A DNA stretch of 64,000 nucleotides from an uncultured Eubacteriales bacterium (GCA_964456985.1 CAYWDH010000005.1:17247-81246); one strand, 5' to 3'. Counted from the stretch's first letter, positions 10,907 through 41,124 are shown. Made by a program: numbers and translations. Notes: generated from the sequence alone by a model not told the origin.

Positions 10907-10926
10907 TATCATAATTAAAATGAAAG

Positions 10927-10991
10927 AGCCCATGACTCTGGATCATGGAATCTGGATCCGAACATACGACCTACTGATTACGAATCAGTTG
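10927..10991 (-). pseudogene. Degenerate 3' fragment of tRNA-Thr(CGT), left att junction
   Basis: 25 bp cgacctactgattacgaatcagttg identical to 25583-25607 (anticodon arm, CGT); remnants of T-arm (ggatccgaac) and acceptor strand (agcccatg). Confidence 0.75.
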
Positions 10992-11084
10992 ATTTTTCCA
11001 GTTTTTTCCTCTGTTATATGGGGTAGTCAGTTAAAAGCCTTTTGCCAATTATAGCCGTAATTGGGCGTTTTTAGTCAAAATCTG
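10967..11084. repeat. Direct repeat A, copy 1 (att core plus P-arm)
   Basis: Aligns by eye to 25583-25700 (both 118 bp); includes gccaattatagccgtaatt(g/a)ggcgttttta(g/t)tcaaaatctg. Confidence 0.9.
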
Positions 11085-11173
11085 TGACATATTTGTGACA
11101 TGGGAGAGGTCTATTTTTTTCCAATTTGATTTATGATATATTATATACATCAGAAAAATGAAAGGGTGGTACT

Positions 11174-13192
11174 ATGACTGAACTTGTTTGGCAAGGCAAG
11201 TATAATAATGATTTAAAAACGTCTCCTGTACGTATAGCATTGCCATTCCAAACTATTGAGACAATAAATGAAAGTACTCAACAACGGCAAAAAACATTAG
11301 AATTGTTTGCTTTAGGAAAAGAAACTGATTGGCGGAATAGATTAATTTGGGGAGATAAAAAATATGTATTACCTTCCCTTATGCCGGAATTTGCTAATAA
11401 GTTAAAACTAATTTATATTGACCCTCCTTTTGATACAGGGGCAGATTTTTCTTTTAAAGCCAAAATACCTGATAATCCACAGACTGAGGAAGATGAAACA
11501 ACAACATTTATTAAACAACCAAGCATTATTGAACAAAAAGCCTACCGTGATACTTGGGGTAAAGGGTTACAATCATATCTTCAATGGTTTTATGAAACAA
11601 TTGCTCTTCTTTATGAACTGCTATCTGAAGATGGTAGTATTTATATTCATATTGATTGGCATATTGGACATTATGCAAAGATAATATTAGATGAAGTATT
11701 TGGATACGATTCATTTAAAGCTGAAATATGTTGGAAAAAAACTACTAAAACTACTTCCTTTAAAAACTATGGTTCAGAACATGATGTAATACTTTATTAT
11801 GTAAAGTCTCCAGATAATTATATTTTCAATCAGGTCTTTAAACCCTTGAAAAAGTCAGAATTATTAACTAAGTACAGATATTTAGAAAGGCCTAATGGTG
11901 AAATTATAACTCTTAACAAAGAACAAAGAGAAGGAAGAAATTTACCTGAAGGCAGACGATTAAGAGGTATCCCATTAACAAATATGAATCCTAATCGTCC
12001 AAATTTAAAATATGAATTCTTAGGTCACACAAGAGTATGGGCTGCGAGTAAAAAAAGGCTAATGAAATTATATAAGGAAGGGAGAATATTCCAAATAGGC
12101 AATAGCCTTCCAAAGAAAAAAGGATATTTAGACGAAAATAAAGGAGCAAAAGTCAACGATGTCTGGGATGATATTAATCCAGTTAATTCGCAAGCGAAAG
12201 AGAGGACTGGTTATGACACACAAAAACCTGAAAAGCTTTTAGAAAGAATTATCTCAGTTTCTACAAATCCAGGTGATTTAGTACTTGATTGTTTTGTTGG
12301 TTCTGGAACTACAGCAGCAATTTCAGAAAAATTGGAGAGGAGATGGATTGCTTGTGATTTGGGGCGTTTTGCAATTCATACCTCACGTAAACGCCTACTT
12401 GAACTTGACAATTTAAAACCTTTTGTAGTTCAAAATCTTGGAAAATATGAACTTCAACACTGGATAGATGCAAAATTTTCTCGTTCTAAAAATCGTTTCA
12501 TTCAGGAAAAAGCATATAAGAATTTTATAATTGAACTTTATCATGCTCAACCAATTACAGGTTACAATTATCTACACGGTATAAAATCAGGAAGGATGAT
12601 TCATGTTGGTTCAGTAGATGCTCCTGTTTCTCTTGGAGATATAAAAGCGTGTATAAAAGAATTTTGGAAATCAGTTGGTAAGTCTCCTGATATCAAAAAA
12701 AATGGAATTGATATTTTAGGGTGGGACTTTGCCTTTGAAATAAATGAGACTGCTAAACAAATTGCTTCTGAAAATAAAATTGACCTAAAATTTAGAAAAA
12801 TACCACGTGAAGTTTTAGATAAAAAAGCAGTTGAACAAGGAGATATAAAATTTTTTGAGATGGCATGCTTAGATATAAAACTCAATCAGAGTGGAAAAAA
12901 TGTTACCCTTAAGCTCAATAATTTTGTTGTTCCTCCTGATGATTTACCTAAGGATGTTCAAAAAAATATCACTCATTGGCGTCAATGGATTGATTATTGG
13001 GCAATTGATTGGAATTACAGAGATGATACTTTCCACAATGAATGGCAAAGCTATCGTACAAAAAATGACTCACAGATTGAATTGCAAGTTACTCATAACT
13101 ACAGTGAACTAGGCCAATACATGATATTAGTTAAGGTAATCGATATTCTCGGGAATGATACCACTAAAATGCTAAAAAATGATATAAAATAA
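11174..13192 (+). CDS. Type III restriction-modification methyltransferase (Mod-like, N6-adenine)
   Basis: IYIDPPF catalytic motif precedes DCFVGSGTT SAM-binding motif (beta class); TQKPEKLL; overlaps the helicase gene by 1 nt. Confidence 0.88.
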   Translation: MTELVWQGKYNNDLKTSPVRIALPFQTIETINESTQQRQKTLELFALGKETDWRNRLIWGDKKYVLPSLMPEFANKLKLIYIDPPFDTGADFSFKAKIPDNPQTEEDETTTFIKQPSIIEQKAYRDTWGKGLQSYLQWFYETIALLYELLSEDGSIYIHIDWHIGHYAKIILDEVFGYDSFKAEICWKKTTKTTSFKNYGSEHDVILYYVKSPDNYIFNQVFKPLKKSELLTKYRYLERPNGEIITLNKEQREGRNLPEGRRLRGIPLTNMNPNRPNLKYEFLGHTRVWAASKKRLMKLYKEGRIFQIGNSLPKKKGYLDENKGAKVNDVWDDINPVNSQAKERTGYDTQKPEKLLERIISVSTNPGDLVLDCFVGSGTTAAISEKLERRWIACDLGRFAIHTSRKRLLELDNLKPFVVQNLGKYELQHWIDAKFSRSKNRFIQEKAYKNFIIELYHAQPITGYNYLHGIKSGRMIHVGSVDAPVSLGDIKACIKEFWKSVGKSPDIKKNGIDILGWDFAFEINETAKQIASENKIDLKFRKIPREVLDKKAVEQGDIKFFEMACLDIKLNQSGKNVTLKLNNFVVPPDDLPKDVQKNITHWRQWIDYWAIDWNYRDDTFHNEWQSYRTKNDSQIELQVTHNYSELGQYMILVKVIDILGNDTTKMLKNDIK

Positions 13193-15759
13193 TGCCGAAA
13201 AAAAGAACAGCAAAAAATCAAAAATATCTTTTTGATATTAAAGAATATCTCTCCACAGCTCATTGTGTCCCTGCTATAAGGGAAGCAGTGGCTGAATGGA
13301 GAGAAGGAGGATATAAAGGAATCACTAAAACCACAAAAGAGCTTCTAAACTTCTGGTTCTATTCAGACCATATATTACCAAACGGCAATAAATTTAGTTA
13401 TTATTTATGTCAACAAGAAGCTATTGAAACGATAATTTACCTTTACGAAATAGAAAATGTCAGAACGAGAAAAGACTTATTAGAGCGTTTCGCATTTAGT
13501 ACAAAAGACTTGCGTCTTCCTCCAATTGATAAGTTTGGTCGATACTGTATTAAAATGGCTACAGGAACTGGAAAAACAAAGGTAATGGCATTAGCTATAG
13601 TGTGGCAATACTTAAACGCAGTCAGAGAGGATGATAATAAATTTGCCAAAACATTTCTTATTATAGCTCCAAACGTAATTGTGTTTGACCGATTAAAAGT
13701 TGATTTTCACGGAGGCAGAATATTTAAAACAGACCCTATGTTTCCAAAACACTTTGAATTATTCTGGGATTTTCAATTTTATATGCGTGGAGATAGCGAA
13801 AGAGCCAGCAGTGATGGTGCCCTTTATCTTACTAATATCCAACAATTTTATGAACGGCCTTCAAAAATTAAAACTGAAGAGCCAGAAGTTTTAACTACTC
13901 TATTAGGTTCGAACCCGAAAAAACAAATATCAGAAATTACTGATTTTAATAAGCGTATCACAAAACGTAGTGGACTTTTAATGGTTCTAAATGATGAAGC
14001 CCACCATACTCATGATGAAAACAATGAGTGGAATAAAGCTATTCACAAAATTCATGATATTAGGAATGTATCTTTACAGCTTGATTTTTCTGCAACTCCG
14101 AGATACTCAAAAGGCTCTCTATTTGCATGGACTATTTATGATTATCCGCTTAAACAGGCTATTGTCGATAACCTCGTGAAACGTCCAATAAAAGGGATTT
14201 CAGAAATTGAGGAAGCAAAGTCAGAAATTTCTAGCGTAAAATATGTAGGATTTCTTACAGCAGCTGTTGAAAGATGGAGAGAATATCGCACTCAATTAAA
14301 GCATTTATCAAAAAGTCCAGTTCTCTTTATTATGATGGCAAATACAAAAGAAGCAGATGAAATTGGAGATTGGATTCAGTCCAAGTATCCATCAGATTTT
14401 GGAGGCAATAAAACATTAATTATTCATACGAAATCATCGGGAGAAATAACCCAAAGAGATTTAGAAAAAGCCAGAAGAGTTGCTCGAGAAGTTGACCGAG
14501 ACGAATCTCCTGTAAATGCAATAGTAAGTGTTCTTATGTTAAGAGAAGGTTGGGATGTTAAAAATGTAACCGTAGTTTTAGGTTTAAGACCATATACGGC
14601 TAAGGCAAATATTTTGCCTGAACAGACTATTGGGAGAGGTTTGAGAATGATGTTTAAGGGATATGCGTCCTCTTATGAAGAACGAGTTGATATTATCGGA
14701 AATTCAGCTTTTCTTGAATTTGTAGATGACTTAGAAATTCTTGAAGAACTAACACTTGAAACCTTTGAGGTTGGAAAAGAAAAACTGAAAATTTCAACCA
14801 TTATGCCAGTTGATAAGAAAAACAACTATGATATTGGAATCCCTGATATTTCGCCCACATTAGCTCGAAAAAAATCTTTATCTGAAGAAATAAATAATTT
14901 AGATGTAATGTCGTTTGACATTAATCCTTTGCCACTTAAAGAAAAAGGAGAGGAGGAGATAAAAACATTTATTTATGAGGGTAGAGATATTTTAACTGAT
15001 GAGAAATTATTAGAAAGAGAATATGAAATACCAAAATCTCAAACCCCAGAAGAAGTTATTGGATATTATGCGAAAAGAATTGCTCAAAATGTTAAATTGC
15101 CATCCCAGTTTGCATCTCTCGTCCCCAAAATAAGAGAATTTTTTAAGAAAAAAGCATTTGGCAAAATAGTTAATTTAAATGATGACGTTGTGATTCAATC
15201 AATGAGTACAAATGTAGCAAGTTACGTTGTATTGAAAGAATTTGAGAAAGCAATAAGAGACCTAATCATAGAAGAGAAAAAGCCTGAACTTTTAGCACCA
15301 AATAGATATTTATCTGCAACCACACCTTTTCCTTTTTCAAAAATAATTATGAAAGCGAGTAAATCTGTATTTAACTATGTTACTTGTGATAATAAATATG
15401 AAGAGTCATTTGCCAAATTTCTTCAATCTGCAAATGATGTAGCTGCTTTTGCAAAGCTTCCAGAACAATTCGGTTTCTGTATTCAATATACAGATAAACG
15501 GGCAAATATTCGTCATTATTACCCCGATTTTGTGACAAGACTTATAGATAATAAACATTGGTTGATAGAAACAAAAGGAAGAGAAGATATTGAAGTAAAA
15601 CTAAAGGATAAAGCAGCAAGGAATTGGTGCGAAAATGCGAGTTTTTTTACGGAAATTGATTGGAATTACATGAAAGTATTACAGAAAGATTTTGATAACT
15701 TGCATCCATCTTGCTTTAATGAATTAAAAAATGCATTGTTTCATCCTGAATTAATTTAA
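13192..15759 (+). CDS. Type III restriction endonuclease subunit (Res-like SF2 helicase plus PD-(D/E)xK nuclease)
   Basis: MATGTGKT Walker A, DEAHH, SATP, LREGWD, EQTIGRGLR, and C-terminal PDF...IETKG. Confidence 0.9.
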   Translation: MPKKRTAKNQKYLFDIKEYLSTAHCVPAIREAVAEWREGGYKGITKTTKELLNFWFYSDHILPNGNKFSYYLCQQEAIETIIYLYEIENVRTRKDLLERFAFSTKDLRLPPIDKFGRYCIKMATGTGKTKVMALAIVWQYLNAVREDDNKFAKTFLIIAPNVIVFDRLKVDFHGGRIFKTDPMFPKHFELFWDFQFYMRGDSERASSDGALYLTNIQQFYERPSKIKTEEPEVLTTLLGSNPKKQISEITDFNKRITKRSGLLMVLNDEAHHTHDENNEWNKAIHKIHDIRNVSLQLDFSATPRYSKGSLFAWTIYDYPLKQAIVDNLVKRPIKGISEIEEAKSEISSVKYVGFLTAAVERWREYRTQLKHLSKSPVLFIMMANTKEADEIGDWIQSKYPSDFGGNKTLIIHTKSSGEITQRDLEKARRVAREVDRDESPVNAIVSVLMLREGWDVKNVTVVLGLRPYTAKANILPEQTIGRGLRMMFKGYASSYEERVDIIGNSAFLEFVDDLEILEELTLETFEVGKEKLKISTIMPVDKKNNYDIGIPDISPTLARKKSLSEEINNLDVMSFDINPLPLKEKGEEEIKTFIYEGRDILTDEKLLEREYEIPKSQTPEEVIGYYAKRIAQNVKLPSQFASLVPKIREFFKKKAFGKIVNLNDDVVIQSMSTNVASYVVLKEFEKAIRDLIIEEKKPELLAPNRYLSATTPFPFSKIIMKASKSVFNYVTCDNKYEESFAKFLQSANDVAAFAKLPEQFGFCIQYTDKRANIRHYYPDFVTRLIDNKHWLIETKGREDIEVKLKDKAARNWCENASFFTEIDWNYMKVLQKDFDNLHPSCFNELKNALFHPELI

Positions 15760-15864
15760 CTCTCAGTATTCTGACCATATTCTGATAGATTTTAGTAGAG
15801 GGGAAACTGGCGTCCCAGGTATGCTGGCTTCTCTAAATCTAATATTTGTAATTAAGGAGGAACA

Positions 15865-16311
15865 ATGAAGATTGAAGCAGAGAAATATGAAGTCATTTTT
15901 GGCTCTAATTTTATATCAGAATGTCCAAGAGTGATTAAATTAATTGGGAAAGGAATAAATAAACAAATCATGAGGTTCAGAGAAGGTGAAGATGGGAAAA
16001 TTCTATTTGATTGTACTGTTAAAGATAAAAAAGGAAATACAGTTACTAGGATTGCAAACAGCTTAACTCAGTATGTTATGAAAGGATATAAAACCCAAAT
16101 TACTGATGATGGGATTAAAGTAATAAATAAAAATACAGGAGATATTTGGTTAGAGTTCGCTTTTGTGAGCCCAAGAAAATTTAAGTTAAATGGGATTTTT
16201 TTCTTGCCAGGATACAAAATAGTTGCAACTGATGAATATTTAGAAATCAACACAAATAGGATTTCTAACTGTAAGTTTTCAAGCTGTTCTGCCGCGATAG
16301 GGCTTGTTTAG
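15865..16311 (+). CDS. Hypothetical protein
   Basis: RBS aaggagg; 148 aa with beta-rich pattern; no family recognised. Confidence 0.75.
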   Translation: MKIEAEKYEVIFGSNFISECPRVIKLIGKGINKQIMRFREGEDGKILFDCTVKDKKGNTVTRIANSLTQYVMKGYKTQITDDGIKVINKNTGDIWLEFAFVSPRKFKLNGIFFLPGYKIVATDEYLEINTNRISNCKFSSCSAAIGLV

Positions 16312-16329
16312 AGTTTTCCTTGAGGCAAG

Positions 16330-16370
16330 GGGAAGCCAGAGACTTTTTAACTCTGGCCTCCCAGATTTTT
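16330..16370 (+). terminator. Intrinsic terminator
   Basis: gggaagccagag...ctctggcctccc stem followed by a T-run. Confidence 0.65.
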
Positions 16371-16462
16371 AATAGACAACGTTACGCTGGAAAATAGCCT
16401 CATAATAGAGGACACACGAAAGTGGAAAAATTTCTCATAAAGGAACCAACAACTAGATTTTA

Positions 16463-17185
16463 ATGTCTCAGAAAAAATCAACAATAGAAATTAAATATTT
16501 ACTTGAAAGAAATACAGGAGTATTTAAGTTTGTTAATCATGACAAAAATGTAATTAAAATTGCTGTGAATCATGGCTGGCTTCCTGGAGCACGTTATACA
16601 CATTTGAGGAACATTAAAATATTTAATAGGTTAGGTTTTCTTGATATTGACTGGAAAAGATATGATTTCAAAAGGCATTTAAAGGCAACGAAAATGACTA
16701 GACCTTTTATGACAGTAGCACGAGATGTTCTAGATAAAAGAGAGCTAAATAAAATTATAGATGAAGCTTTCTCCTTACAAAAATATGCTAAAATAGTTAT
16801 AATAGTTCCGAAAGATAGAAAATTATCATGTCATATAAATAATATAATACCTAAGAATTTTTTATTGGGTTTTAGCGTTACCAGTTCATATGGGGAAACA
16901 AATATTGAACCTAAATACTTTAATAGGCCAGTCCATCTCCTCGGTGGTCGTCCAGAGGTTCAACGCAATCTTGCAAATTTGATGCCAGTAGTGTCATTTG
17001 ACAACAATAGATTCACTCTAGATGCTATCTATGGAGATTACTTTGATGGGCAAATATTTCGACCCCATCCTAATGGAGGTTATATAAGTTGCATTAGAGA
17101 TTCAATAATAAATATAAATAGATTGTGGGAGGATTACAAACCTCCTTATTGGGAATATTCTACAAACTTTAAATTGGAGACATAA
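16463..17185 (+). CDS. DUF6610-like protein with motifs reminiscent of a TGT-type TIM barrel
   Basis: GFLDIDWK, VARD, VHLLGG and SFDNN motifs; family recalled from memory, not searched. Confidence 0.55.
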   Translation: MSQKKSTIEIKYLLERNTGVFKFVNHDKNVIKIAVNHGWLPGARYTHLRNIKIFNRLGFLDIDWKRYDFKRHLKATKMTRPFMTVARDVLDKRELNKIIDEAFSLQKYAKIVIIVPKDRKLSCHINNIIPKNFLLGFSVTSSYGETNIEPKYFNRPVHLLGGRPEVQRNLANLMPVVSFDNNRFTLDAIYGDYFDGQIFRPHPNGGYISCIRDSIININRLWEDYKPPYWEYSTNFKLET

Positions 17186-17187
17186 TT

Positions 17188-17862
17188 ATGGACGACAAGG
17201 AAAAATTCCGTAGAGAATTTTTAATTAATATGTACAACCAAATGTTTAATGATATTAATAGGCATATTACTGTCACTTGGCAATCTATTACTACCTTTGT
17301 TGGTGCATTCGCTATTTTTGCCTTAGCAGAGAGAGAAATTATAAGTGTTGACATTGCTTCTACTTTAGTTGTCTTAATATGTGGCTGGCTCATAGCACAC
17401 GTCATTGACGCTTCATATTGGTATAATAGAAATCTCGCTATTATTGCAAACATAGAAAAGGAGTTTTTAGAAAAAGATGATTTATGGAAAATTCATTATT
17501 ATTTCGGTCAACACAGACCTAAAAATAGAATGATTCACCATCTAAAAATACAATTTTTTTTCGGACTAACCCTAGGATTATCTATACTAATTTTCCATTT
17601 TCTTACAATAGTAATTCCAAGTTTATATTTTTCATTAAGTTTAAAAAGTATAGATTTGAGTAAATGGTTTCCCTATATAGCTCTTATTGTTATTTCAATT
17701 TATATTGTTTGGGTGATAAGACATAGGTCATCAAGTTATAAGGAATTTCTAAAAAATTCACCTGGGATAAAGGTTGATACAACAGACATTATTTATGGAA
17801 AAGGTCATGCATTTGGATTTATGAGAAAAATCAAGAGAAAAAAAAATGAGGAAAGTATATAG
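17188..17862 (+). CDS. Multi-pass membrane protein, candidate defence effector
   Basis: About four hydrophobic segments; begins 2 nt after the preceding stop codon. Confidence 0.7.
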   Translation: MDDKEKFRREFLINMYNQMFNDINRHITVTWQSITTFVGAFAIFALAEREIISVDIASTLVVLICGWLIAHVIDASYWYNRNLAIIANIEKEFLEKDDLWKIHYYFGQHRPKNRMIHHLKIQFFFGLTLGLSILIFHFLTIVIPSLYFSLSLKSIDLSKWFPYIALIVISIYIVWVIRHRSSSYKEFLKNSPGIKVDTTDIIYGKGHAFGFMRKIKRKKNEESI

Positions 17863-17927
17863 AGGAATATAAATTCTATTTCCTAGTCAATGATGAAAAT
17901 ATATGAAAAGAAAATACATGTCTTGAA

Positions 17928-18137
17928 TTGAAAAAGGAGGAACTCATGAAAACAGATAAAAACGTTATCAATCAAATTGAAAAATTATTAGAGAGATATG
18001 AAATTGAAGTTGAGGAAAAAAGAAAGAATGGGATATTAAAGGACAAGACAGCATATACTTATCTCCGGCACGCCAATACTTTCGTTAGATGGTGCAAAGA
18101 TGATTTCATCCCAGGCGAAAGAAATATAAATAAATGA
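17928..18137 (+). CDS. Small hypothetical protein (integrase N-terminal SAM-like flavour)
   Basis: TAYTYLRHANTFVRWC motif. Start may instead be the ATG at 17946, which has RBS aggagg. Confidence 0.6.
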   Translation: MKKEELMKTDKNVINQIEKLLERYEIEVEEKRKNGILKDKTAYTYLRHANTFVRWCKDDFIPGERNINK

Positions 18138-18214
18138 GAGTTAAGGAAGCTCGAAAGGAATAATGGCTTTTGAGATAGGCGAAAGAAGAAACAGGAAATT
18201 CTCACTAAATTTAA

Positions 18215-18457
18215 TTAGCTTTTTAGCTTTTTTTCATAAGTTCGTATAAAGTCTATAAATTTAATATCCAAACCACGACAGATTGTCATAAGTTCAACAA
18301 TATCTAACCTTCGTTCGCATCTTTCATATTTACTAATATATGTCTGGTCAGTTCCAATCTTTTGGGCTAACTCTAGTTGAGTCAGATTTGCAGACTTTCT
18401 GAATTTTTTTAGGCATTCTACCAAAATTTTATATTCTTCCCTATGAATAGTCTTCAC
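18215..18457 (-). CDS. XRE-family HTH regulator
   Basis: RKSANLTQLELAQKIGTDQTYISKYERCERRLD; GTG at 18457 with an upstream AAGGA is preferred over the ORF-track start at 18514. Confidence 0.88.
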   Translation of the reverse strand: MKTIHREEYKILVECLKKFRKSANLTQLELAQKIGTDQTYISKYERCERRLDIVELMTICRGLDIKFIDFIRTYEKKLKS

Positions 18458-18505
18458 TTGGAATTTCCTTAAAAACCTTGGTGTTATTAAACATGTAAAT
18501 TCAAA

Positions 18506-18552
18506 ATATGCCAAAATAGCATATTGACGAGGGAAGCAAACAAAGTTATGCT
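18506..18552 (+). promoter_or_regulatory. Promoter with overlapping palindromic operator between the divergent XRE and lipoprotein genes
   Basis: TTGACG-N17-TATGCT at 18524-18552; ATATGC-N7-GCATAT at 18506-18524. Confidence 0.6.
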
Positions 18553-18637
18553 TAAAGCAAGCAAATTAATAATCCAGTTTAAAGAGGAAAATGAAGAAAG
18601 ATTTTATAAAAATCTTCATGAAAAAAGGAGGTAAGAA

Positions 18638-19129
18638 ATGAAAAAAGGAAAAGGTGGAACCTTCATCATTGTCTTTGTACTTTCACTCTCAGTGATTATG
18701 GCCGGATGTAACCAAGCGGAGAAAGAGCGAGAAGCTCAAATCAAGCAAAAGAAAAAAGAGAGGGCGGAGACTATAGATAGAATGGAGAGTTCATTTAGAG
18801 GCATCCTTCAAGGGAGCGGGTATATATTTGCAGATGTTAACTTGATAGAAGAGGAGGAGTTTATAAACTTCTATTTTTCGTTCTGGAAACGTATGGATAA
18901 AAATGAACTGTCCAAAACTATAGGGGCTTGTATTGCGATAGTTGGAGAAGCATCAAAAGATGAAAATTGGAAATGGGGAAGAGTTTATTTCAGATATGGA
19001 GATGCATACGAAGGGGAAAAATTGGGTTGGATTACTTCTTATAATTGTAGAGAGGCTCTTAAACATGAGGACAATCCAGAGCAAATGAGAAAGATAATAT
19101 CCGAGAATTGGCATGATTGGATAGATTAA
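18638..19129 (+). CDS. Putative lipoprotein
   Basis: RBS aggaggt; signal peptide with MAG-C lipobox. Confidence 0.72.
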   Translation: MKKGKGGTFIIVFVLSLSVIMAGCNQAEKEREAQIKQKKKERAETIDRMESSFRGILQGSGYIFADVNLIEEEEFINFYFSFWKRMDKNELSKTIGACIAIVGEASKDENWKWGRVYFRYGDAYEGEKLGWITSYNCREALKHEDNPEQMRKIISENWHDWID

Positions 19130-19130
19130 G

Positions 19131-19388
19131 AAAAGAGCCAAGGCACTGAGAAAAAAATGTCCATTTCTTAAAACGGATATACCACCTGCTTTATTCTATA
19201 ATTCTCGTTACCGATAAAAATAATTATGTCTACTTTTCATCAGCGTAACTTCTTTATTTACAACACTTCTTGATTTTACATAAAAAACGGGACGATTATC
19301 GTGAATTTTGTCCCAAAATGGGCAAAAAAACGGGTATATTTTCCCAATCAAGTCCAAAAATACGCCTATTTTTAGCCTTTTTGTCCCA
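19131..19388. repeat. Direct repeat B, copy 1 (~260 bp dif-containing module)
   Basis: Colinear but diverged similarity to 35710-35966, e.g. aaacggata..ccacctgc, gtgaattttg.cccaaaatgg, ttcccaa.caagtccaaaaa. Confidence 0.88.
19207..19234 (+). other. XerC/XerD dif-like recombination site
   Basis: GTTACCGATAA-AAATAA-TTATGTCTACT: 11-6-11 layout, ATAA/TTAT inner palindrome, XerD arm resembling TTATGTTAAAT. Confidence 0.7.
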
Positions 19389-19430
19389 TTTTATTTTGCC
19401 GAACTACCGAAACTTTATGAAAATAACTGC

Positions 19431-19459
19431 TTGACAACCGCACTGTAATGACCTATTTT
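19431..19459 (+). promoter_or_regulatory. Sigma70-type promoter for the terminase module
   Basis: TTGACA-N17-TATTTT. Confidence 0.55.
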
Positions 19460-19716
19460 CTGAATAGGTGTTCCGTTCCCCTGCTTGAACGGGACTTAGG
19501 TATAAAGGTAAATAAACCCCAAGTAAGTCAGTATTAGAGGGTCATCTTCTGGTATAGGTCTGATTGAGTTTGTCTGTCTTATGGCATCTCATAGGGAGAA
19601 ATTTTAGAGAAAATGAAAAGAGACCAGATAGAGGGAATAAAAATGAGAATACAATTAACTATCTACCCTTATAATCGTCGTTTCTGGGGCGTTTCAGAGC
19701 CTTATTTGAGGAGAAT

Positions 19717-20181
19717 TTGACTATGTCTAAGGCTGATTCTGGAAGGGATTCACAAGGAAGATTTACGAAGGGGAATAAAGCCGCCATAAAGCATTATTGC
19801 CATACGTTTCTTGTAACAAATAGACTCCCTAAAATTCGTGGAGTAAGGAAGATTCAGAAGAATCTGGATAGGGTCAGAAAAGAGCTTGAGTCTAGTGTTT
19901 CCAAGATGACTGTCCAGAAGCAAATCCTGATTGACCAAATCGTAAAAACACAGGGTTTTTGCTCACTATTCGAGCTATATGCCAGAAAGATGGGATTATT
20001 TGACCCCCAGGATGGTAAAAAAGGAAAAATCTCTTTTATGCCAGGATTCAAGACTTATATCAGTCTGTTAAACAGTCAGCGGAGGGCATTATTTGCTCTT
20101 GGGTTAGATAGACAGGCTCAAGAGCAGATTTTAACTCCGCTCGAAATCACACAAAAGGAGAGTGGAAATGAAAGATATTAA
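19717..20181 (+). CDS. Putative terminase small subunit
   Basis: GRDSQGRFTKGNKAAIKH N-terminal motif typical of TerS-like proteins; directly upstream of TerL. Confidence 0.6.
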   Translation: MTMSKADSGRDSQGRFTKGNKAAIKHYCHTFLVTNRLPKIRGVRKIQKNLDRVRKELESSVSKMTVQKQILIDQIVKTQGFCSLFELYARKMGLFDPQDGKKGKISFMPGFKTYISLLNSQRRALFALGLDRQAQEQILTPLEITQKESGNERY

Positions 20182-20326
20182 GACTGTTGATGATTTACGA
20201 AGGGAGTATCCAAAACTTGTAAAAGAGATTGAAGATAACGCTCTCATTAGTGGAGGGAAAAAGCACTCATTTGACAGAGAGATACGGAGAGCTAAAGCAC
20301 AGGCAAGGAGACTAGCTGGAGTATAG
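20168..20326 (+). CDS. Small protein (52 aa) between terS and terL, not in the ORF track
   Basis: Own translation MKDIKTVDDLRREYPKLVKEIEDNALISGGKKHSFDREIRRAKAQARRLAGV; RBS ggag; overlaps the terS end and stops 1 nt before the terL ATG. Confidence 0.6.
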   Translation: MKDIKTVDDLRREYPKLVKEIEDNALISGGKKHSFDREIRRAKAQARRLAGV

Positions 20327-20327
20327 A

Positions 20328-21920
20328 ATGAACATTATTCAAGCTCTCGATGACGAAAGATTTTTCAAAGGTCTGTTCAAAGATTCTTCCACCTGGGCGT
20401 CATGGAGAGTTTTTCTCAAAGCATTATTCGGACTTCCAATTGAAGACAAAAAGGAACTTGAGCTTTTCAGGAAATGCACAGGAAGAAAAGAATTTTTATC
20501 TAAGCAAGCTAGAGAATGTTACGTAATAGCAGGGAGACGCTCAGGAAAGTCCTTCATTTCTGCGGTTATCGCTGTATATTTAGCCTGTTTTTTTGACTGG
20601 ACACCTTTTCTAACTACGGGGGAGCTGGGTTCTATTTTCATTATTGCAACGGATAAAGAACAGGCTCGTATTGTTAAGGCTTATATAGACGGGATTCTTA
20701 ACTCGACTCCACATCTTGCGAAAACAATAGAAAAAAGCCTTGTTTGGGAAATTGAATTGAACACAAGAGTAAACATTGCAATCAAAACCGCTTCATTCAA
20801 AACTGTCAGAGGATTCACATTGTTAGCTGTCATAGCTGAAGAACTTGCATTTTGGAGAGATTCAGAGACCTCTGCAAATCCAGCTCAAGAGATTCTAACC
20901 GCACTAAGACCCGCACTTTCAACTATTCCTAATTCTCTCCTTCTTGGAATTTCCACTCCATACAGCCGTTCGGGAGTTCTTTGGGAACATTTTCATAAAC
21001 ACTATGGAAACGACGAAAGAGAGGCTCCTCTAGTCTGGCAAGCTGACACTTTTACTATGAACCCTACAATAAACAAATCCATCATTGAAAACGCTCTCAG
21101 AGATGATTACTCAGCGGCTTCTGCTGAATGGCTTGCCAGATTTAGGGATGACCTTGAGCAGTTCTTATCATTAGAACTTATCGAGCAAGCAGTCATCCCT
21201 GGACGTATCGAACTTCCAAAGATTGCAGACACTCGGTATTTTGCTCATTGTGACCCAAGTGGAGGACGTGGAGACTCAATGACCCTGGCAATCAGTCACA
21301 AGGATTCAGACAGTCAGAAAATCGTCCTGGATGCTGTCAGGGAAGCCAGACCCCCTTTCGTACCCAGAGATGTGGTCAAAGACTTTTCCAAGGTTTTGAA
21401 AAGTTACGGAGTCGAGCGTTTACAGCTTGACCGTTACGCCGCAGAGTGGACTGTTTCAGCTTTTAGAGATGAAGGAATCATGCCAGAGTCGGTAAAGAAA
21501 TCAGCTTCTGAGCTTTATATAAATTTCTTGCCTTTGATAAGCAATCGAAGCATTGAACTCTTAGATAATAAACGACTCGTTTCACAATTTAAATCCCTGG
21601 AGCGAAAAACAAGGAGTGGAGGGCGAGATTTAGTTGACCACCCTCCAGGAGCACACGACGATTTGTCAAATGCTACTGCTGGGGCTTGTGTCCTTGCCTC
21701 TGAGATTCAAGAAAATGATTCAGAAATCATTCTCTCACTTCTAGAAGCAGAGGCGGAATCTATCTTGACAGATGAAGAGGAGCTTGAGCGGCGTTTTACA
21801 ACCTGGCTCTTAGGTGGTGAATTACCTCCGACAAAAGAGGAGCAAGAAGGTAAACCCAGGCAGGGAAAACCAAGGACAGTTTTGACAGTAAGTGAATGGG
21901 ACAGAAGAAATGATAAATAG
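20328..21920 (+). CDS. Terminase large subunit
   Basis: AGRRSGKS Walker A, AVIAEELAFW Walker B, LGISTP coupling motif, RNase-H-like nuclease DPSGGRGDS and HDDLSNA. Confidence 0.88.
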   Translation: MNIIQALDDERFFKGLFKDSSTWASWRVFLKALFGLPIEDKKELELFRKCTGRKEFLSKQARECYVIAGRRSGKSFISAVIAVYLACFFDWTPFLTTGELGSIFIIATDKEQARIVKAYIDGILNSTPHLAKTIEKSLVWEIELNTRVNIAIKTASFKTVRGFTLLAVIAEELAFWRDSETSANPAQEILTALRPALSTIPNSLLLGISTPYSRSGVLWEHFHKHYGNDEREAPLVWQADTFTMNPTINKSIIENALRDDYSAASAEWLARFRDDLEQFLSLELIEQAVIPGRIELPKIADTRYFAHCDPSGGRGDSMTLAISHKDSDSQKIVLDAVREARPPFVPRDVVKDFSKVLKSYGVERLQLDRYAAEWTVSAFRDEGIMPESVKKSASELYINFLPLISNRSIELLDNKRLVSQFKSLERKTRSGGRDLVDHPPGAHDDLSNATAGACVLASEIQENDSEIILSLLEAEAESILTDEEELERRFTTWLLGGELPPTKEEQEGKPRQGKPRTVLTVSEWDRRNDK

Positions 21921-22053
21921 AAGCTTATATCTAACGACGTCCACACCAAAAAGACTGTCCTTCTTTTTCAGGTGTTTTATGCCTATGGAGCAGGGCGGCT
22001 GTTTTTTAAAAAGAACAGTCGCCCTTCCTCCTAAGGTCAAAAGAGAGTGAAAA

Positions 22054-22656
22054 ATGACAAAGAAAGAAATTGAAAAAATCCTTATAAGCAAGATTCTGGA
22101 AAATCCTCATTTTATCCGCTTCGATAAAGCTCCGGCCGTTTACCCAGAACATAATGAACATGCAGGGTTACTCTGGAAGATTTTTTACCTTTTCGAGACC
22201 AGAACATGGACAAGACTCAGCAGGGAAAATGATGGTTTGATTTTGTCTGTTTTGGATAAAATCGCAAAGGAAGGGAAAGCTAAATTTTTCAGTGTGGAAC
22301 TCACAAAAGACATGCATCATGATGACATTCGCTTCAGGTGTGAAATCGGGACAGCGAAAAGGACAAACGGAACCTGTGATGTTAAACAAACAACTATAAG
22401 GCTCTATTCGGATGAACCTCTTACAAAAAAAGAGAAGAAAGAGCCTTACACTATTCTGAATGTTAAAGAGCAATTTGAGAAAATAAGAGAGGAACGAGAC
22501 AAGGCATTCAGAAAAGAGTTCGGATGGAGATACGACTTCGACCTCGAAAAGAAACTCCGCAACCAGGAGCTAAAAGCTCAATCTGAACTGAGACGAAACA
22601 TACGAGCAATCAGAAAATGGACTCAGGAACATGATGAAAAACAAAAAAAGGCTTAA
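22054..22656 (+). CDS. Hypothetical protein of the element core
   Basis: 200 aa ORF with a charged, coiled-coil-like C-terminus. Confidence 0.7.
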   Translation: MTKKEIEKILISKILENPHFIRFDKAPAVYPEHNEHAGLLWKIFYLFETRTWTRLSRENDGLILSVLDKIAKEGKAKFFSVELTKDMHHDDIRFRCEIGTAKRTNGTCDVKQTTIRLYSDEPLTKKEKKEPYTILNVKEQFEKIREERDKAFRKEFGWRYDFDLEKKLRNQELKAQSELRRNIRAIRKWTQEHDEKQKKA

Positions 22657-22749
22657 TATAAAATGGCTCATACTGGTTTTTCAAAGAATAAAGGGGCAGT
22701 CGTTTTTCTAACTTGTAACGACCGCCTCGACTAAAAGAGCAAAGGAAAG

Positions 22750-22884
22750 ATGAGTTATAAAAAGCTTTCAGTCCCAGAAATTAAGAGAGAAAATCCCTGG
22801 GGATATCTCAAAGATAGAATCAGGTTTTTTATTTGGCTTTTAAAGTGGAGTGTCATTCTTTTAATTTTAGGGGTTTGTTTTTAA
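22750..22884 (+). CDS. Possible 44 aa single-pass membrane peptide
   Basis: Own translation MSYKKLSVPEIKRENPWGYLKDRIRFFIWLLKWSVILLILGVCF; aaagga upstream. Confidence 0.4.
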   Translation: MSYKKLSVPEIKRENPWGYLKDRIRFFIWLLKWSVILLILGVCF

Positions 22885-22906
22885 TATGGAAAAAATCTTT
22901 AATCAT

Positions 22907-22949
22907 AGCCAAGAAGGGGAGGTCATTGCTTCTATCCTCCCCTCTGGCT
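22907..22949. terminator. Hairpin, probable terminator
   Basis: agccaagaaggggagg...cctcccctctggct inverted repeat. Confidence 0.5.
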
Positions 22950-23130
22950 CTTCAAAAAATTGGGTTTTTTTGAAAAATGATTAAAATAATAGATAAGGTC
23001 GCTCCGTCGTTTGGAGTGATGGTCATTTAGAACCCAGTTCTGGGTTGGTCATTAGGCTCGAAAAATCGAGCGGTTCCTTGAACTTGCGTTCAGCAAGTGG
23101 TGAATTAAAAAATTTAATAGAAAGGAGCCA

Positions 23131-23571
23131 ATGGCTATGATTAAAAATCCAAACTCAAACCCAAACCTGGGAAGAAGAAATCACCAAACAGCCGTTACTT
23201 TTGATGGTGTACATTACGGACAAACACCAATTGATTTGCTCGCAGACCCTAATATTAAACCACAGCTAAAAGTTTTATATTCAGCTTATCATTTACACTG
23301 TCCGCAAAAATATCTAAGTTCAAATCCGTTTACCTTCGTCAGTCAAAAAAGAATCGGCAGAGAATATCTTGGATGGAGTCAACAAACAGTTTCATATTGG
23401 ACAAAAAAACTTGCAGAGGAAGGCTGGCTGACAATCATAAGACTCGGACAAGGAAAATCCAACATCATCATTTTACACGATAGAAAAGGGAAGCGTATTA
23501 CAGCAAAAGAGCGGAAAAATTTCATCAAATCTGTCAAACTTCAACAGGCTAGATACCAATCCTCTTTGTAA
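23131..23571 (+). CDS. Winged-HTH protein, putative replication initiator / replisome organiser
   Basis: SQKRIGREYLGWSQQTVSYWTKKLAEEGWL HTH pattern; followed immediately by iteron-like repeats. Confidence 0.6.
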   Translation: MAMIKNPNSNPNLGRRNHQTAVTFDGVHYGQTPIDLLADPNIKPQLKVLYSAYHLHCPQKYLSSNPFTFVSQKRIGREYLGWSQQTVSYWTKKLAEEGWLTIIRLGQGKSNIIILHDRKGKRITAKERKNFIKSVKLQQARYQSSL

Positions 23572-24085
23572 CTAGATACCAACCCTCTTTGTGCTAAATA
23601 AATAAGAATAAATAAATAATAAATTTATTATTATCTTTTTTAAGATTTAAATAAATTTATTATTTATGAATAGAAGATATAATGTAATGTATATCTTCTA
23701 TTTACCCTGTGTAATACGCTCTCATACTGTAATACACACTGTAATACACACTGTATTACACACTGTATTACACTTTGTATTACATCCCTCGCTTCGCTCG
23801 GGGAACGCCTTCGGCGTCTCTGAATCTTAGAAAGTTTACTGAACAGACCCTTCAGCATTATTTCAACTTCAGCATTATTAGAAAATGTCCAGAATGTCCA
23901 GATATCAGGAATGTCCAAAATGTCCAGAATGTCCGAAAAAAGGGGACAAAAAGCAAATTGAGTTTACTCAAGAACGACCTTTAAATTAGTGTAATACAGA
24001 GAGTGTATGTAATACGTCCTTAATATAGCTGTAATACATTTCTACCTCAGGGTAATACACAATAATTTTATAGTGTAATACACAA
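23549..24085. repeat. Origin-like region with three families of short direct repeats and an AT-only tract
   Basis: 2x ctagataccaa(t/c)cctctttgt (23549, 23572); AT-only tract ~23596-23670; tandem 12-mers ctgta(a/t)tacaca ~23727-23775 plus scattered gtaatac; aatgtcc repeats ~23884-23934. Confidence 0.75.
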
Positions 24086-24130
24086 TTTCAATCAAAAATA
24101 GCCGTTTTTCATACTCTCACACTGGAGAGA

Positions 24131-25552
24131 TTGAAAATGGATTCTTTACTAAATACAAAACAGCTTTCAGAATACTTAGGAGTATCCAAAAGCACAGTAT
24201 ACAGATACATAAAAAATCTCGGTCTCCCTTACTATCAAATCCAAGATTCAAAACTCCTATTTAAAAAGGAAGAAGTTGATGAGTGGGTGAATCATCACAA
24301 AACAACGTACAAGCTTACTGACAAAATTTTAAATAATTTGTTGACAAATCCTGTTCGAGAAAATATTGATAAGGTTGAAGGAGGTCAAACAGTGGCGAGA
24401 AAAAAGACTCGTCACAATTACGGCTATGGTTCGGTTTATGTCAGGAAAACAAAAAAGGGAATATCAAGGTATTACATCGAGTATTACGATTCAGAAGGAA
24501 AAAGGATTCAGAAAGTAGTAAAAAATGCAGTTGATTGGAATCCTGCACATGAGGCTTTAAGAGATGCTGTCTACAAAGTACATTTCCATAAAATTGACTC
24601 AAAAATTCAAAAGAAAACTATCAGATTTAAATCATTCTCTGAAATCTATCTCAAAGACTATGCTATGAGAAAAAAATCATGGGAACGCTCGGAAAAAGTG
24701 TATTTGAACGCCAGCCTTATCCCCTACTTCGGAAAATATAAAATCAGAAAAATCACACAGCACCACATTGAGCAATTCATTCGTGAGAGACAAGAAAATG
24801 GAGTTAAAAAATCAAGTATCAATCGTGAACTTTCATGTTTGAGTATGATGTTCAAGAAAGCTATCAGTTGGGGATATTTGAGCGAGAATCCATTGGAACA
24901 TATCAAGCGATTTAAGGAGAAAGATAACATGAGGGAAAGAGTCCTGTCAGAAAAAGAAGAGTCAAGGCTTTTAGAAAATTGTGCAGACCATCTGAAGCCT
25001 ATCATCATCACCGCTCTTAACACCGGAATGAGGCTAGGAGAGATTCTACAGCTCAGATGGAGTCAAGTTGACTTTAACACAAGAAGAATCAAAGTAGAAA
25101 ACACAAAAAGCGAAAAGAACAGGGTCATTGGAATCAATGAAGACCTGTACAATGTTTTGAAGCAAAGAAACACTCAAAATCCTTATGTATTCCCGAATCC
25201 TAGCACAGGAAAAGCACTGACTACCGTAAAAACGTCATTCAAAACTGCTTGTAAGAGAGCGGGGATTGAAAATCTGCGTTTTAATGACCTAAGACACACA
25301 TTTGGAACTAGACTCATTCAGAATGGAGTAGACATTGAAACGGTGAGAGATTTAATGGGTCATCACAGCATCGTTGTCACTCAAAGGTACCTTCATACGA
25401 ACGATGAAAGAAGGCGGCTAGCTGTTGAATCATTGACCAATAAAGGGACAAAAAAGGTACAAATCTGTGACACGAACTGTGACACGGGGACAAAAAGCGG
25501 AACACCCAAAAATAACAAAACCCACCCAAATGTATTATTTTCAGCCAATTAA
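24131..25552 (+). CDS. Tyrosine integrase with an in-frame N-terminal excisionase-like HTH
   Basis: LLNTKQLSEYLGVSKSTVYRY (Xis/HTH_17 pattern); catalytic residues in TGMRLGE, FNDLRHTFG, MGH and TQRY; internal aaggaggt-N6-GTG start at 24392. Confidence 0.92.
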   Translation: MKMDSLLNTKQLSEYLGVSKSTVYRYIKNLGLPYYQIQDSKLLFKKEEVDEWVNHHKTTYKLTDKILNNLLTNPVRENIDKVEGGQTVARKKTRHNYGYGSVYVRKTKKGISRYYIEYYDSEGKRIQKVVKNAVDWNPAHEALRDAVYKVHFHKIDSKIQKKTIRFKSFSEIYLKDYAMRKKSWERSEKVYLNASLIPYFGKYKIRKITQHHIEQFIRERQENGVKKSSINRELSCLSMMFKKAISWGYLSENPLEHIKRFKEKDNMRERVLSEKEESRLLENCADHLKPIIITALNTGMRLGEILQLRWSQVDFNTRRIKVENTKSEKNRVIGINEDLYNVLKQRNTQNPYVFPNPSTGKALTTVKTSFKTACKRAGIENLRFNDLRHTFGTRLIQNGVDIETVRDLMGHHSIVVTQRYLHTNDERRRLAVESLTNKGTKKVQICDTNCDTGTKSGTPKNNKTHPNVLFSAN

Positions 25553-25558
25553 AAAAAG

Positions 25559-25611
25559 AGCCAGCGAGAGGATTCGAACCTCCGACCTACTGATTACGAA
25601 TCAGTTGCTCT
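25559..25611 (-). pseudogene. 3' 53 nt of tRNA-Thr(CGT), att junction; 5' half absent
   Basis: Reverse complement AGAGCAACTGATTCGTAATCAGTAGGTCGGAGGTTCGAATCCTCTCGCTGGCT gives anticodon arm (CGT), T-arm and acceptor 3' strand; no 5' acceptor strand adjacent. Confidence 0.9.
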
Positions 25612-25700
25612 TGCAGTGTTTTCCCTATGTTATATGGGTTAGCCAGAAAAAAAGTTTTAGCCAATTATAGCCGTAATTAGGCGTTTTTATTCAAAATCTG
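25583..25700. repeat. Direct repeat A, copy 2
   Basis: Matches 10967-11084. Confidence 0.9.
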
Positions 25701-25834: not shown

Positions 25835-26974
25835 GTGGATAATTCATTACTAAAATCGTATGATTGGGACTTTGTAGATACCTCTTCAAGTAATGGAGTT
25901 CACTCAATCCACTCATACCCTGCTAAATTTATTCCTCAAATACCTCGTCAGTTAATTAAATTATTTGCAAATGACAAGAGTAGAGTAATTCTTGATCCAT
26001 TTTGTGGCTCAGGAACTACGCTTGTTGAAGCAATTCTAAAGGGATTTGATGCATGGGGAATTGATATAAATCCAGTTTCTTGTCTTATTTCAAGGGTTAA
26101 AACTAGGCGTCTTCCAAATAATTTTCTATTTGTTTTGAGACAAGTGCTTGAAGAGGCAAAAGAGCATTATGCAAACAATACAGTCATACTTCCTGAAATC
26201 CCTCGATTAGACCATTGGTTTAAGAAAGATATTCAAAAAGCTGTTAAAGCTCTTTTAGATAAAATCAACTTGCAGGAGAGCATCCTAATAAAAGAAGGCC
26301 TACAGGTTGCTCTCTCGAAAATTTTGGTACAGGTTTCTAATCAGGAAAGTGATACGCGATATGCTGCTGTCGAAAAAAACGTAACCTATCTAGATGTTTT
26401 TGTTAAATTTGAGAAGGCCGCAGTGATTGTCTTCAATGAATTATCCAAAATATCAGATGACCTCTTTAAAAAGCTTGGCAAAGCCGTGGTGATAAATAAA
26501 GATATTATGAAGACCAAAGGCAAAGATTTGCCTGATAATATCGGTTTAATCATTACTTCACCCCCATATCCGAATGCATATGAGTACTGGCTTTATCATA
26601 AATATAGAATGTATTGGTTAGGAATGGACCCAATAAAAGTGAGAGAGAATGAAATAGGCGCTCGACCTCATTATTTTAAGAAAAATCATCAAGATGAAAG
26701 GGACTTTGAGAATCAGATGAGTAAATGTTTCGAACTTCTGTCACGAGTAATGATAAAGAATGGAAAGGCATGTTTTCTCGTAGGAGATTCTGTTATACAT
26801 GGGAAAACGATTGATAACTCTTTAATATTACATCGAGCGGCAGAGCCATATGGATTTAAAGTAATCGATGAAGTCGAACGCAATATCTTAGTCACACGAA
26901 AGACATTTAATCCAAAACATGGAAGATTAAAAAAAGAAACAATCTTGGTGTTTTCTCTTAATGAAAAGATATGA
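25835..26974 (+). CDS. DNA methyltransferase 1 (probable N4-cytosine)
   Basis: HSYPAKFIP, DPFCGSGTT and TSPPY motifs. Confidence 0.88.
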   Translation: MDNSLLKSYDWDFVDTSSSNGVHSIHSYPAKFIPQIPRQLIKLFANDKSRVILDPFCGSGTTLVEAILKGFDAWGIDINPVSCLISRVKTRRLPNNFLFVLRQVLEEAKEHYANNTVILPEIPRLDHWFKKDIQKAVKALLDKINLQESILIKEGLQVALSKILVQVSNQESDTRYAAVEKNVTYLDVFVKFEKAAVIVFNELSKISDDLFKKLGKAVVINKDIMKTKGKDLPDNIGLIITSPPYPNAYEYWLYHKYRMYWLGMDPIKVRENEIGARPHYFKKNHQDERDFENQMSKCFELLSRVMIKNGKACFLVGDSVIHGKTIDNSLILHRAAEPYGFKVIDEVERNILVTRKTFNPKHGRLKKETILVFSLNEKI

Positions 26975-28575: not shown

Positions 28576-28576
28576 A

Positions 28577-29785: not shown

Positions 29786-30118
29786 AAGATAATATTGGGC
29801 TTCCTTAATATGGGGTTTAATTAGATATAAGCTTTTTTCAATACAAGCAAACTATTCTGAAATATTCTATACAGTCTATTTGGGCGATTGGAAGCCAGAA
29901 ACTCTGAAGCTATTGCTTCCCGAATGCAGATTCCGGTCCATTCCGGACACTGATTCCGAATTAATCCGGCCACTAAATCCGGAGCATTCCGGTCACGGAT
30001 TCCGGATTAATCCGGCCATTTTTTACTGGGTTTCGGAATCATTGATCAGCGAAGCGGCGCTGGATAACTTGATGAGAATAAGCCATCATGTCTCTTTTAA
30101 AAAAGAGAGGAGAACAAG

Positions 30119-31651: not shown

Positions 31652-31749
31652 AGGGTAAAAGTTTTACATCATTTAAAGAAAACGCGTTATACGGCATCTG
31701 AGAGCCTGTTTTTTTTAAGCTTTAAAAACACAGAAAAAAGGAGATAATC

Positions 31750-32508: not shown

Positions 32509-32809
32509 TGATAGACCAGCGTCGCTTCGCTCCGGAATGTGGCCGGATTAAATCGGAATCGGTGGCCGGATACGCCGGAATAAGCACCGAAGAAGAAATG
32601 ACGGCAATGTCGGAAATGCATCCCACTTAGATAGGCGGTTTATAAATAGAGATATTCTCATCTCAGGAAAAGAAATAACTATAAATAACTAAATTTCATT
32701 TAAATTGTGATGCCCTCTTTATCTTGACAGCTAATTAAACTAAGAATACATTTATAGTAAGAAAATAAGAGCAAAAAGGTCAAACTTAATAAATATATAC
32801 TAAAAAAAA

Positions 32810-34105: not shown

Positions 34106-34133
34106 AATCAAAAATTAGTGTCTTTTTTAGAAA

Positions 34134-39080: not shown

Positions 39081-39103
39081 CAGCTTTTTTTAAAGGAGGC
39101 AAA

Positions 39104-41036: not shown

Positions 41037-41124
41037 CACCGCGCAATACACATTTACTTATCTCTGAAAAATATTGCCTTCTTTTTTAAGAGGGACTATC
41101 ATATACAGCCAGAAAGGAGGAACC

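Follow-up and report, generated by a model that had tools for sequence, protein, structure and literature searches.

XerCD acts on sites of 11-6-11 layout. In Xer core sites generally, an 11-nt XerC arm and an 11-nt XerD arm enclose a central region of 6-8 nt, and the inner bases of the arms are palindromic. Plasmids use the host recombinases XerC and XerD to resolve their multimers, and IMEXs, which have no integrase, use them to enter the chromosome at dif. The plasmid sites cer (ColE1) and psi (pSC101) consist of a dif-type core carried by a small accessory replicon. They keep the XerD arm, typically have a weak XerC arm, have a central region unlike that of dif and need long accessory flanks. 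IMEXs (CTX-phi, VGJ-phi, TLC-phi, the gonococcal genetic island) are mobile elements with a dif mimic; they are found at the chromosomal dif and are bounded by dif-type sites. In the pdif modules of Acinetobacter, dif-like sites lie beside variable accessory genes and each module is bounded by a pair of sites. PICI, P4-like satellites and tycheposons are small elements with an integrase beside a tRNA 3' fragment. They occur in tandem arrays marked by partial tRNA repeats; replication-type genes and a slot for defence cargo are present, whereas capsid and tail genes are missing.

The locus described here is located within a 64,000 nt stretch of DNA (the window) of an uncultured Eubacteriales bacterium, whose 3.03-Mb assembly is designated G000. 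Judging by the named homologues of a flanking gene, the host is probably of Aminicenantes/Acidobacteriota type. An island at 10869-35966 comprises two elements in tandem (Table 1). Element 1 (about 10967-25611, 14.6 kb) has both att repeats and looks complete, while element 2 lacks the core and the integrase and ends after its module. Att core A is the left att repeat of element 1, with the surrounding T-arm and 3' end decayed; att repeat B serves element 1 as its right att and element 2 as its left one. The four core genes code for a 154-aa small protein (19717-20181), a TerL-like ATPase/nuclease (20328-21920), a 200-aa ORF product and a winged-HTH protein (23131-23571) resembling a replication initiator. 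The integrase gene lies beside the 65-nt tRNA-Thr(CGU) repeat, an arrangement characteristic of tRNA-targeting islands and satellites. The 65-nt and 25-nt tRNA fragments show that the elements integrate through their own integrase at tRNA-Thr and not at dif. An intact tRNA-Thr(CGU) gene, the presumed attB, is present at G000:C31:15907-15990; it adjoins an SMC gene and is unoccupied.

Table 1. Features of the island and its junctions; positions are counted from the first nucleotide of the window.
Feature	Position	Strand	Description
Left island junction	10869-10925	+	~57 nt resembling DNA just upstream of att B (by-eye comparison, 25496-25556)
tRNA-Thr(CGU)-derived att core A	10967-10991	-	25 nt exact to the anticodon-arm region of the C31 tRNA gene
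Conserved left end, element 1	10996-11100	+	Hairpin GCCAATTA-TAGCCG-TAATTGG at 11044-11064, then T run
Cargo of element 1	11174-19129	+	Type III restriction-modification mod and res; DUF6610 protein; small ORFs
Module copy 1, XerC-arm side	19131-19206	+	Box AAAACGG at 19170-19176
Dif-like Xer core site, copy 1	19207-19234	+	GTTACCGATAA-AAATAA-TTATGTCTACT
Module copy 1, TerL-proximal part	19235-19388	+	AAAACGGG boxes at 19284 and 19327; GTCC(C)A boxes at 19352 and 19383
Imperfect palindrome, copy 1	19306-19327	+	TTTTGTCCCAAAATGGGCAAAA
Sigma-70-like promoter	19431-19459	+	TTGACA-17-TATTTT, 10/12; precedes the small gene and TerL-like operon
Element core	19717-23571	+	Four genes including the TerL-like one
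Tyrosine integrase with N-terminal excisionase-type HTH_17 domain	24131-25552	+	
Att repeat B	25547-25611	-	65 nt exact to C31: 3' 54 nt of the tRNA-Thr(CGU) gene and 11 nt downstream
Conserved left end, element 2	25612-25700	+	Hairpin at 25660-25680, T run
Cargo of element 2	25835-35729	+	Two DNA methyltransferases, PLD-family nuclease, IS21, 431-aa ORF, DUF5677 protein
Module copy 2	35710-35966	+	80% identical to copy 1; no core or integrase after it
Dif-like Xer core site, copy 2	35786-35813	+	GAAACCGATAA-GACGGA-TTATGTCAACT
Imperfect palindrome, copy 2	35884-35905	+	Same form; TTTTG(T/C)CCCAAAATGG(G/C)CAAAA in both copies
Right island junction	35954-35966	+	13-nt microhomology CCTTTTTATCCCA; copy 1 counterpart CCTTTTTGTCCCA

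The left ends of the two elements are homologous. The conserved segment pair (10954-11084 and 25570-25700) starts with the 3' part of tRNA-Thr(CGU) on the minus strand and continues into the ~95-nt left end. The left end of element 1 is also 78% identical to positions 3353-3445 of a related locus, L004, and its segment with the terminator-like hairpin is better conserved there (78%) than the right module (~60%). The cargo of element 2 includes an IS21-family insertion (istA/istB; 29932-30018 and 30119-32508) with 23-nt terminal multi-repeats. Further along the window, at 38142-42054, there are four tandem paralogues of ~310-326 aa with 63-84% DNA identity in sub-blocks; the first two were compared with Pfam and gave no match.

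In genus relatives, the place of the island is taken by CHAT(+), orf183-192, orf240 and TPR-CHAT(-), the latter coding for 940-980 aa, and there is no tRNA gene. Homology to these genomes ends at ~10868, inside the 3' end of CHAT(+), and restarts at 35953. The 25-kb island thus stands in place of orf183-192, orf240 and the C-terminal ~750 codons of the TPR-CHAT gene, and the ORF at 35823-36533 retains only residues 1-197 of the ~940-980-aa TPR-CHAT(-) protein. The DNA that the left junction resembles holds the 3' end of the integrase gene, and the ~57 nt there are probably a remnant of a third element. At the right junction, CCTTTTTATCCCA is common to the module, where it forms part of a TTTTRTCCCA box, and to the host TPR-CHAT(-) gene of the relatives. 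Since the relatives' homology resumes within the truncated host gene at this microhomology, the right edge of copy 2, located 140-150 nt from the 28-mer, is a rearrangement scar. The module's right end had also been considered as a functional element boundary and was rejected because of this junction. The island is either part of a tandem array that was moved here or a heterodimer circle that has been opened.

The first-pass annotation had placed a dif-like 28-mer exactly between cargo and core, inside a non-coding module with a second copy at 35710-35966, and had noted an imperfect palindrome in both. These coordinates hold, the two modules are 80% identical and the palindrome is present in either copy. 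The last cargo ORF stops at 19129 and the first core ORF starts at 19717, with the 28-mer in between. The module at 19131-19388 has exactly one further copy in the whole assembly (identity calculated over 258 nt), and as DNA it is absent from 95 other genomes of the host family. Viral contigs gave no match in an exact-pattern scan for the module or in a TerL-based scan, and the Rfam and tRNA scans of the window returned no Rfam match and no tRNA gene. The AAAACGG box at 19170-19176 is kept in copy 2 and in three related loci (L004, L036, L010), while the promoter-like site is kept in L004 and L036.

Both 28-mers of the window contain ATAA-N6-TTAT inside the 11-6-11 frame. Their arms agree with the dif of Escherichia coli or Bacillus subtilis at 15 positions of 22, a score at noise level in this genome, where ~30 sites reach at least 16/22. 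Copy 1 and copy 2 share 21 of 28 positions (75%), and the 28-mer is no better conserved between them than the left (75%) and right (84%) flanks. Judged from the window alone, the dif-like reading would be unproven. We accepted it because related elements and genomes conserve the site.

For the comparison, 84 related metagenome loci (574 kb) were used. The general dif consensus DBBBCSBATAATRTAYATTATGTHAANT marks one site per related locus, upstream of the TerL-like gene and with up to 26 of 28 positions matching, as in L065 (GTGTCGCATAATATACATTATGTCTACA, 26/28), L047 and L036. The family consensus of these sites is GTGTCGCATAA-N6-TTATGTCAACT. At a threshold of at least 27 bits, the position weight matrix built from these sites finds the site in 29 of the 84 loci, which corresponds to 25 distinct sites; shuffled sequence gives ~1 match per Mb even at a 13-bit threshold. 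All matrix matches but a weak one sit 670-3500 nt upstream of the TerL-like gene, and homologous elements have the site at the same place as the window. In 46 loci the upstream sequence extends for 1.5 kb or more, and 22 of these have the site. In roughly half of the related loci whose upstream stretch is long enough, no site can be recognised, and a search for a second site class in elements without the motif found none.

In an alignment anchored on the site, the information content per position is 1.12 and 1.34 bits for the two arms, 0.32 for the spacer and 0.16-0.17 for the flanks; the values are somewhat inflated by the use of a motif for picking the sites, with the flank contrast and the constant location still clear. 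All 27 spacers are different, and none is identical to the GGTATA of the lineage dif. Sixteen of the distinct sites are in plus and nine in minus orientation. At a threshold of 13 bits, only one site is found per related locus, and the island at 10869-35966 contains no further site reaching 10 bits. The copies of the window score 17.5 and 14.5 bits versus 27-39 bits in the relatives, and they rank first and fourth genome-wide in the matrix scan of G000 (6 Mb of searched sequence). We take the 28-mer to be a real, selected dif-type 11-6-11 site, possibly decayed in the window.

The core is accompanied by conserved boxes: AAAACGG (near -40, +50 and +95), AAATGGGAWATTAT (near +45-60) and TGTCCCAWWW (near +75-100). 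On the TerL-proximal side, their order and spacing are the same at 16 of 27 sites of related elements, in either orientation of the site. The boxes may equally be read as operators of the adjacent promoter. An inverted core site with unchanged TerL-proximal boxes is seen in L004, L010, L047, L052, L054, L061, L070, L082 and L090. Flips also separate close relatives on the TerL tree, with the window and L036 in plus orientation and L004 in minus. An inverted core within collinear flanks cannot be produced by a crossover at the site itself. Two other stretches, L126:13336-13500 (G073:C127) and L127:2429 (G089:C41), combine a dif-like site and GGGA/TCCCA boxes without a TerL-like gene or an integrase in the stretch fetched. 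Either these are leftovers comparable to element 2, or the module may also be carried by other backbones.

R1, a covariance model built from the sequences of 27 element sites, was used to locate the chromosomal dif of the host lineage. In each of five genus relatives and in the genome of L004, it gives exactly one strong match (24.8-27.5 bits). The matches share a syntenic intergenic position between convergent genes, and their flanks are 66-87% identical. We assign this single syntenic match as the chromosomal dif of the lineage. It reads GTGTCGCATAA GGTATA TTATGTCAACT with minor variants and agrees with the general dif consensus at 27 of 28 positions (hand count). Its arms and the consensus arms of the element family are identical at all 22 positions. 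Of 37 good-quality genomes of the host family, 32 give an R1 match, in most cases a single one; two or more matches occur in roughly 25 genomes. The first candidate for the host dif had been an intergenic site at C66:8804, which agrees with the consensus at 25/28 positions and is also present in G085; it was dropped once R1 located the syntenic one.

The dif locus of G000 is absent, together with its flanking genes, from the 86%-complete assembly, and the dif comparison uses the genus relatives. Compared with the lineage dif, copy 1 has 7/11 matching positions in its XerC-type arm (GTTACCGATAA) and 10/11 in its XerD-type arm (TTATGTCTACT); copy 2 has 6/11 (GAAACCGATAA) and 11/11 (TTATGTCAACT). 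In G006 (= genome G096), the element site (C1:910127) and dif (C1:448791) are 460 kb apart on one contig; therefore, the element site is not dif itself. It is separate from both the tRNA att and the chromosomal dif. The dif locus of G081 is split between C36:6368-6395 and C117:3558-3585 (L129, L130), each contig ending after an identical dif copy, GTGTCGCATAAGGGTTATTATGTCAACT. This suggests either an element inserted at dif in the manner of IMEXs or a repeat-induced assembly break.

In G000, the C17 protein is XerD (TIGR02225, 382.5 bits with an NCBIfam equivalog cut-off of 329.6), and a 299-aa ORF of C4 is a XerC-like paralogue, with XerC as the best match in the part tested. Several proposals of the first-pass annotation gain from these comparisons. 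It had named a dif-like 11-6-11 site, to be abandoned if the 28-mer proved no more conserved than its flanks across homologues; the arms are conserved in at least 25 distinct related elements and the flanks and spacer are not. The comparison with the host dif that it had called for gives identical arms at the level of the family consensus. Its suggestion of two recombinases agrees with the presence of an own tyrosine integrase and tRNA-Thr att repeats on the element and of XerD and a XerC-like protein in the host.

As the 28-mer is a selected dif mimic, XerC and XerD are by far its most likely ligands. The elements probably use them as a second recombination system. On balance, we lean slightly towards the view that these integrase-bearing elements carry a dif-mimic core site which recruits the host XerC/XerD, most likely for multimer resolution. 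The integrase of the element would be responsible for integration and excision at tRNA-Thr, while the dif mimic would recruit XerC/XerD. The latter would bind the site, recombine it and convert multimers of the excised, replicating element into monomers, as with cer, psi and other plasmid Xer sites. Recombination of the site with itself is suggested because the spacer is free and never identical to the dif hexamer, the orientation is free and there is a single site per element. Multimer resolution is a plausible purpose and the best reading of the site. A life outside the chromosome, with replication as an episome, is suggested by the replication-type genes and by plasmid-borne relatives.

The likeness to cer and psi lies in the dif-type core with a kept XerD arm, a weaker XerC arm and a central region unlike dif, and in the presumed role, self-by-self resolution by the host XerCD. 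A strong XerD arm with a weak XerC arm, as in the copies of the window, could reflect this plasmid-site pattern or decay. Unlike cer and psi, the site is carried not by a plasmid but by an element that integrates and has a tyrosine integrase and tRNA att of its own, and in about one family member out of three its core is flipped relative to the conserved flanks. The host lineage, an uncultured Acidobacteriota/Aminicenantes-like group, is a further difference. Neither does the site have the ~180-bp accessory region of fixed geometry, bound by accessory proteins, on the XerC side. An accessory flank of cer/psi type had been expected from the module; in the window, conservation on the XerC side extends over no more than ~75 nt, and the boxes stay TerL-proximal although the core is flipped in nine of 25 elements.

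Dif-like sites of a different arrangement were found in G072, a genome of the same bacterial family. It has 24 dif-like matches, with arrays at C96:3650-23710 (L122/L123) and C103:236-6960 (L124). The C96 array has at least ten sites with different hexamers, eight of them in the same orientation, 0.2-6 kb apart and with 1-3 unrelated genes in between (MTase-Mrr, subtilase, radical SAM, three SnoaL-like, HD domain, OMP). On their XerC side, most G072 sites are flanked by ~80 conserved nt that include the inverted repeat GGAAGCC...GGCTTCC. The arrays look like Xer-site-bounded gene cassettes, and because of them such cassettes seem to exist in the lineage.

The G072 arrays (at least 14 dif-like sites between cassettes of 1-3 genes) bear on another role of the element site, that of a docking or exchange point for cargo cassettes recombined by XerCD, similar to the Acinetobacter pdif modules or integron attI. 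The variable cargo slot does abut the site, its end being 57-90 nt away in the window, L004, L036 and L010, and dif-like sites beside variable accessory genes are what pdif modules and the G072 arrays have in common with the elements. We regard this role as rather unlikely. Pdif modules are bounded by pairs of sites, whereas here there is one site, with no second one, even weak, anywhere in the 25-kb island. The homology between copy 1, copy 2, L004 and L036 spans the site, the cargo ends away from the crossover point, genes lie between site and core in L006, L057, L065 and L079, and the modules of the window lack the conserved XerC-side flank of the G072 sites. The first-pass annotation had proposed Xer-mediated cargo swapping; the single site per element, the backbone homology running through both its sides and the position of the cargo/backbone break, 57-78 nt to its left, speak against this idea. 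In a broader form, XerC/XerD would run a general cassette system of the lineage, in which dif-type sites with private hexamers bound cassettes and the single site of the satellite docks or exchanges defence cassettes. We find this form improbable; if true, it would be an integron-like platform run by housekeeping Xer recombinases on an integrase-bearing satellite. A decayed state of the 28-mers is an alternative specific to the window: they would be functionless relics, element 2 would be dead, and the island as a whole would be a fragment that was rearranged and no longer sits at its tRNA target. The XerC arms with 6-7 of 11 positions, scores 10-20 bits under those of the relatives, the loss of core and integrase from element 2, its end in a rearrangement junction and the empty attB on C31 all agree with this. 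We nevertheless consider it unlikely, given the nearly or fully intact XerD arms, the first and fourth rank of the copies in the searched sequence, the apparent completeness of element 1 with both att repeats and the fact that weak XerC arms are typical of plasmid Xer sites.

The arms identical to those of the lineage dif at the family level would also suit an IMEX-type attP, giving the element a second entry to the chromosome through XerCD recombination with dif, and the split dif locus of G081 suggests that insertions at dif occur in the genus. Such a use is very unlikely for these elements. IMEXs and the elements described here are both mobile and have a dif mimic, presumably exploiting XerC/XerD, but IMEXs lack an integrase and are bounded by dif-type sites at the chromosomal dif, while the elements have an integrase, tRNA-derived sites far from dif, one internal site and an unrelated spacer. 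All copies with context are either away from dif or beside their own integrase and tRNA fragment, in no locus do two sites enclose an element, the hypervariable spacers are never GGTATA, and the island junctions at ~10869 and 35954-35966 are not at the 28-mers. Alternatively, the motif could be bound by a protein of the element, being a pac/cos site, an operator of the operon with the small-protein and TerL-like genes or a secondary site of the integrase. Its position in a regulatory non-coding region upstream of these genes (the usual place of pac/cos), the conserved GGGA and TCCCA boxes at fixed spacing and the matches of the integrase catalytic domain to Xer families, which are below threshold, fit this possibility. 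It has little probability in our view: the arms are identical to dif at 22/22 positions, the model finds a single syntenic site in genomes without another strong match, a core flipped within collinear flanks in nine of 25 elements is hard to reconcile with a directional pac site or operator, and the integrase has its own tRNA-type core of unrelated sequence. Recruitment of the host XerC/XerD by the dif mimic is thus the reading we prefer.

The elements with this site belong to a family defined by the TerL-like protein. It has 1,709 homologues at E ≤ 1e-20, all from metagenomes or MAGs and none named. Loci with context share one gene order: cargo with defence genes, the small protein gene, the TerL-like gene, sometimes a DUF3987 primase-helicase gene, the HTH_17 integrase gene and a tRNA-like fragment. 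The closest TerL-like relatives (L004, L036) are 67% identical. Others, with 43-47% identity, are encoded by plasmids of Komagataeibacter and Methylobacterium (NZ_CP134887.1, NZ_CP019881.1, NC_010373.1, NZ_CP121649.1). On the one plasmid inspected, Komagataeibacter NZ_CP134887.1, the TerL-like gene is next to a small ORF and genes for a DUF2213 protein and ParA, all annotated as hypothetical. A check of the contigs for terminal overlaps marking circular elements found none.

From gene content alone, the elements resemble phage satellites of the PICI and P4-like types, and also tycheposons: they are small, have an integrase beside a tRNA 3' fragment and partial tRNA repeats in tandem arrays, and combine replication-type genes and a defence cargo slot with the lack of capsid and tail genes. 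They are unlike these satellites in having an internal Xer site and a TerL-like protein whose identity to true large terminases of phages is 22-24% at best. The family is a large one, made up of integrative, satellite-like elements of ~10-15 kb from uncultured bacteria of sediments. In these elements, a tRNA-derived att is followed by the cargo slot with defence genes, the non-coding module, the small-protein and TerL-like genes, replication-type genes and the gene of the HTH_17 tyrosine integrase; the dif-like site is part of this backbone. A literature search of incomplete coverage returned IMEXs, pdif modules and satellites (tycheposons, PICMI, virion-encapsidated elements); it gave no paper describing the present family or reporting a Xer site in a satellite that has an integrase.

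Overall, this is a widespread family, whose TerL-like homologues in public metagenomes number more than 1,700. Its elements have their own tRNA-targeting integrase and still keep a canonical dif mimic under selection, with a hypervariable central region and free orientation. The analysis also assigns the chromosomal dif of the lineage and points to Xer-site-bounded cassette arrays in a sister genome. If the site works as we suppose, integrative satellites can use two recombination systems with a division of labour between them. The 28-mer and two conserved host enzymes would then provide a simple experimental handle on the episomal life of elements from uncultured bacteria.
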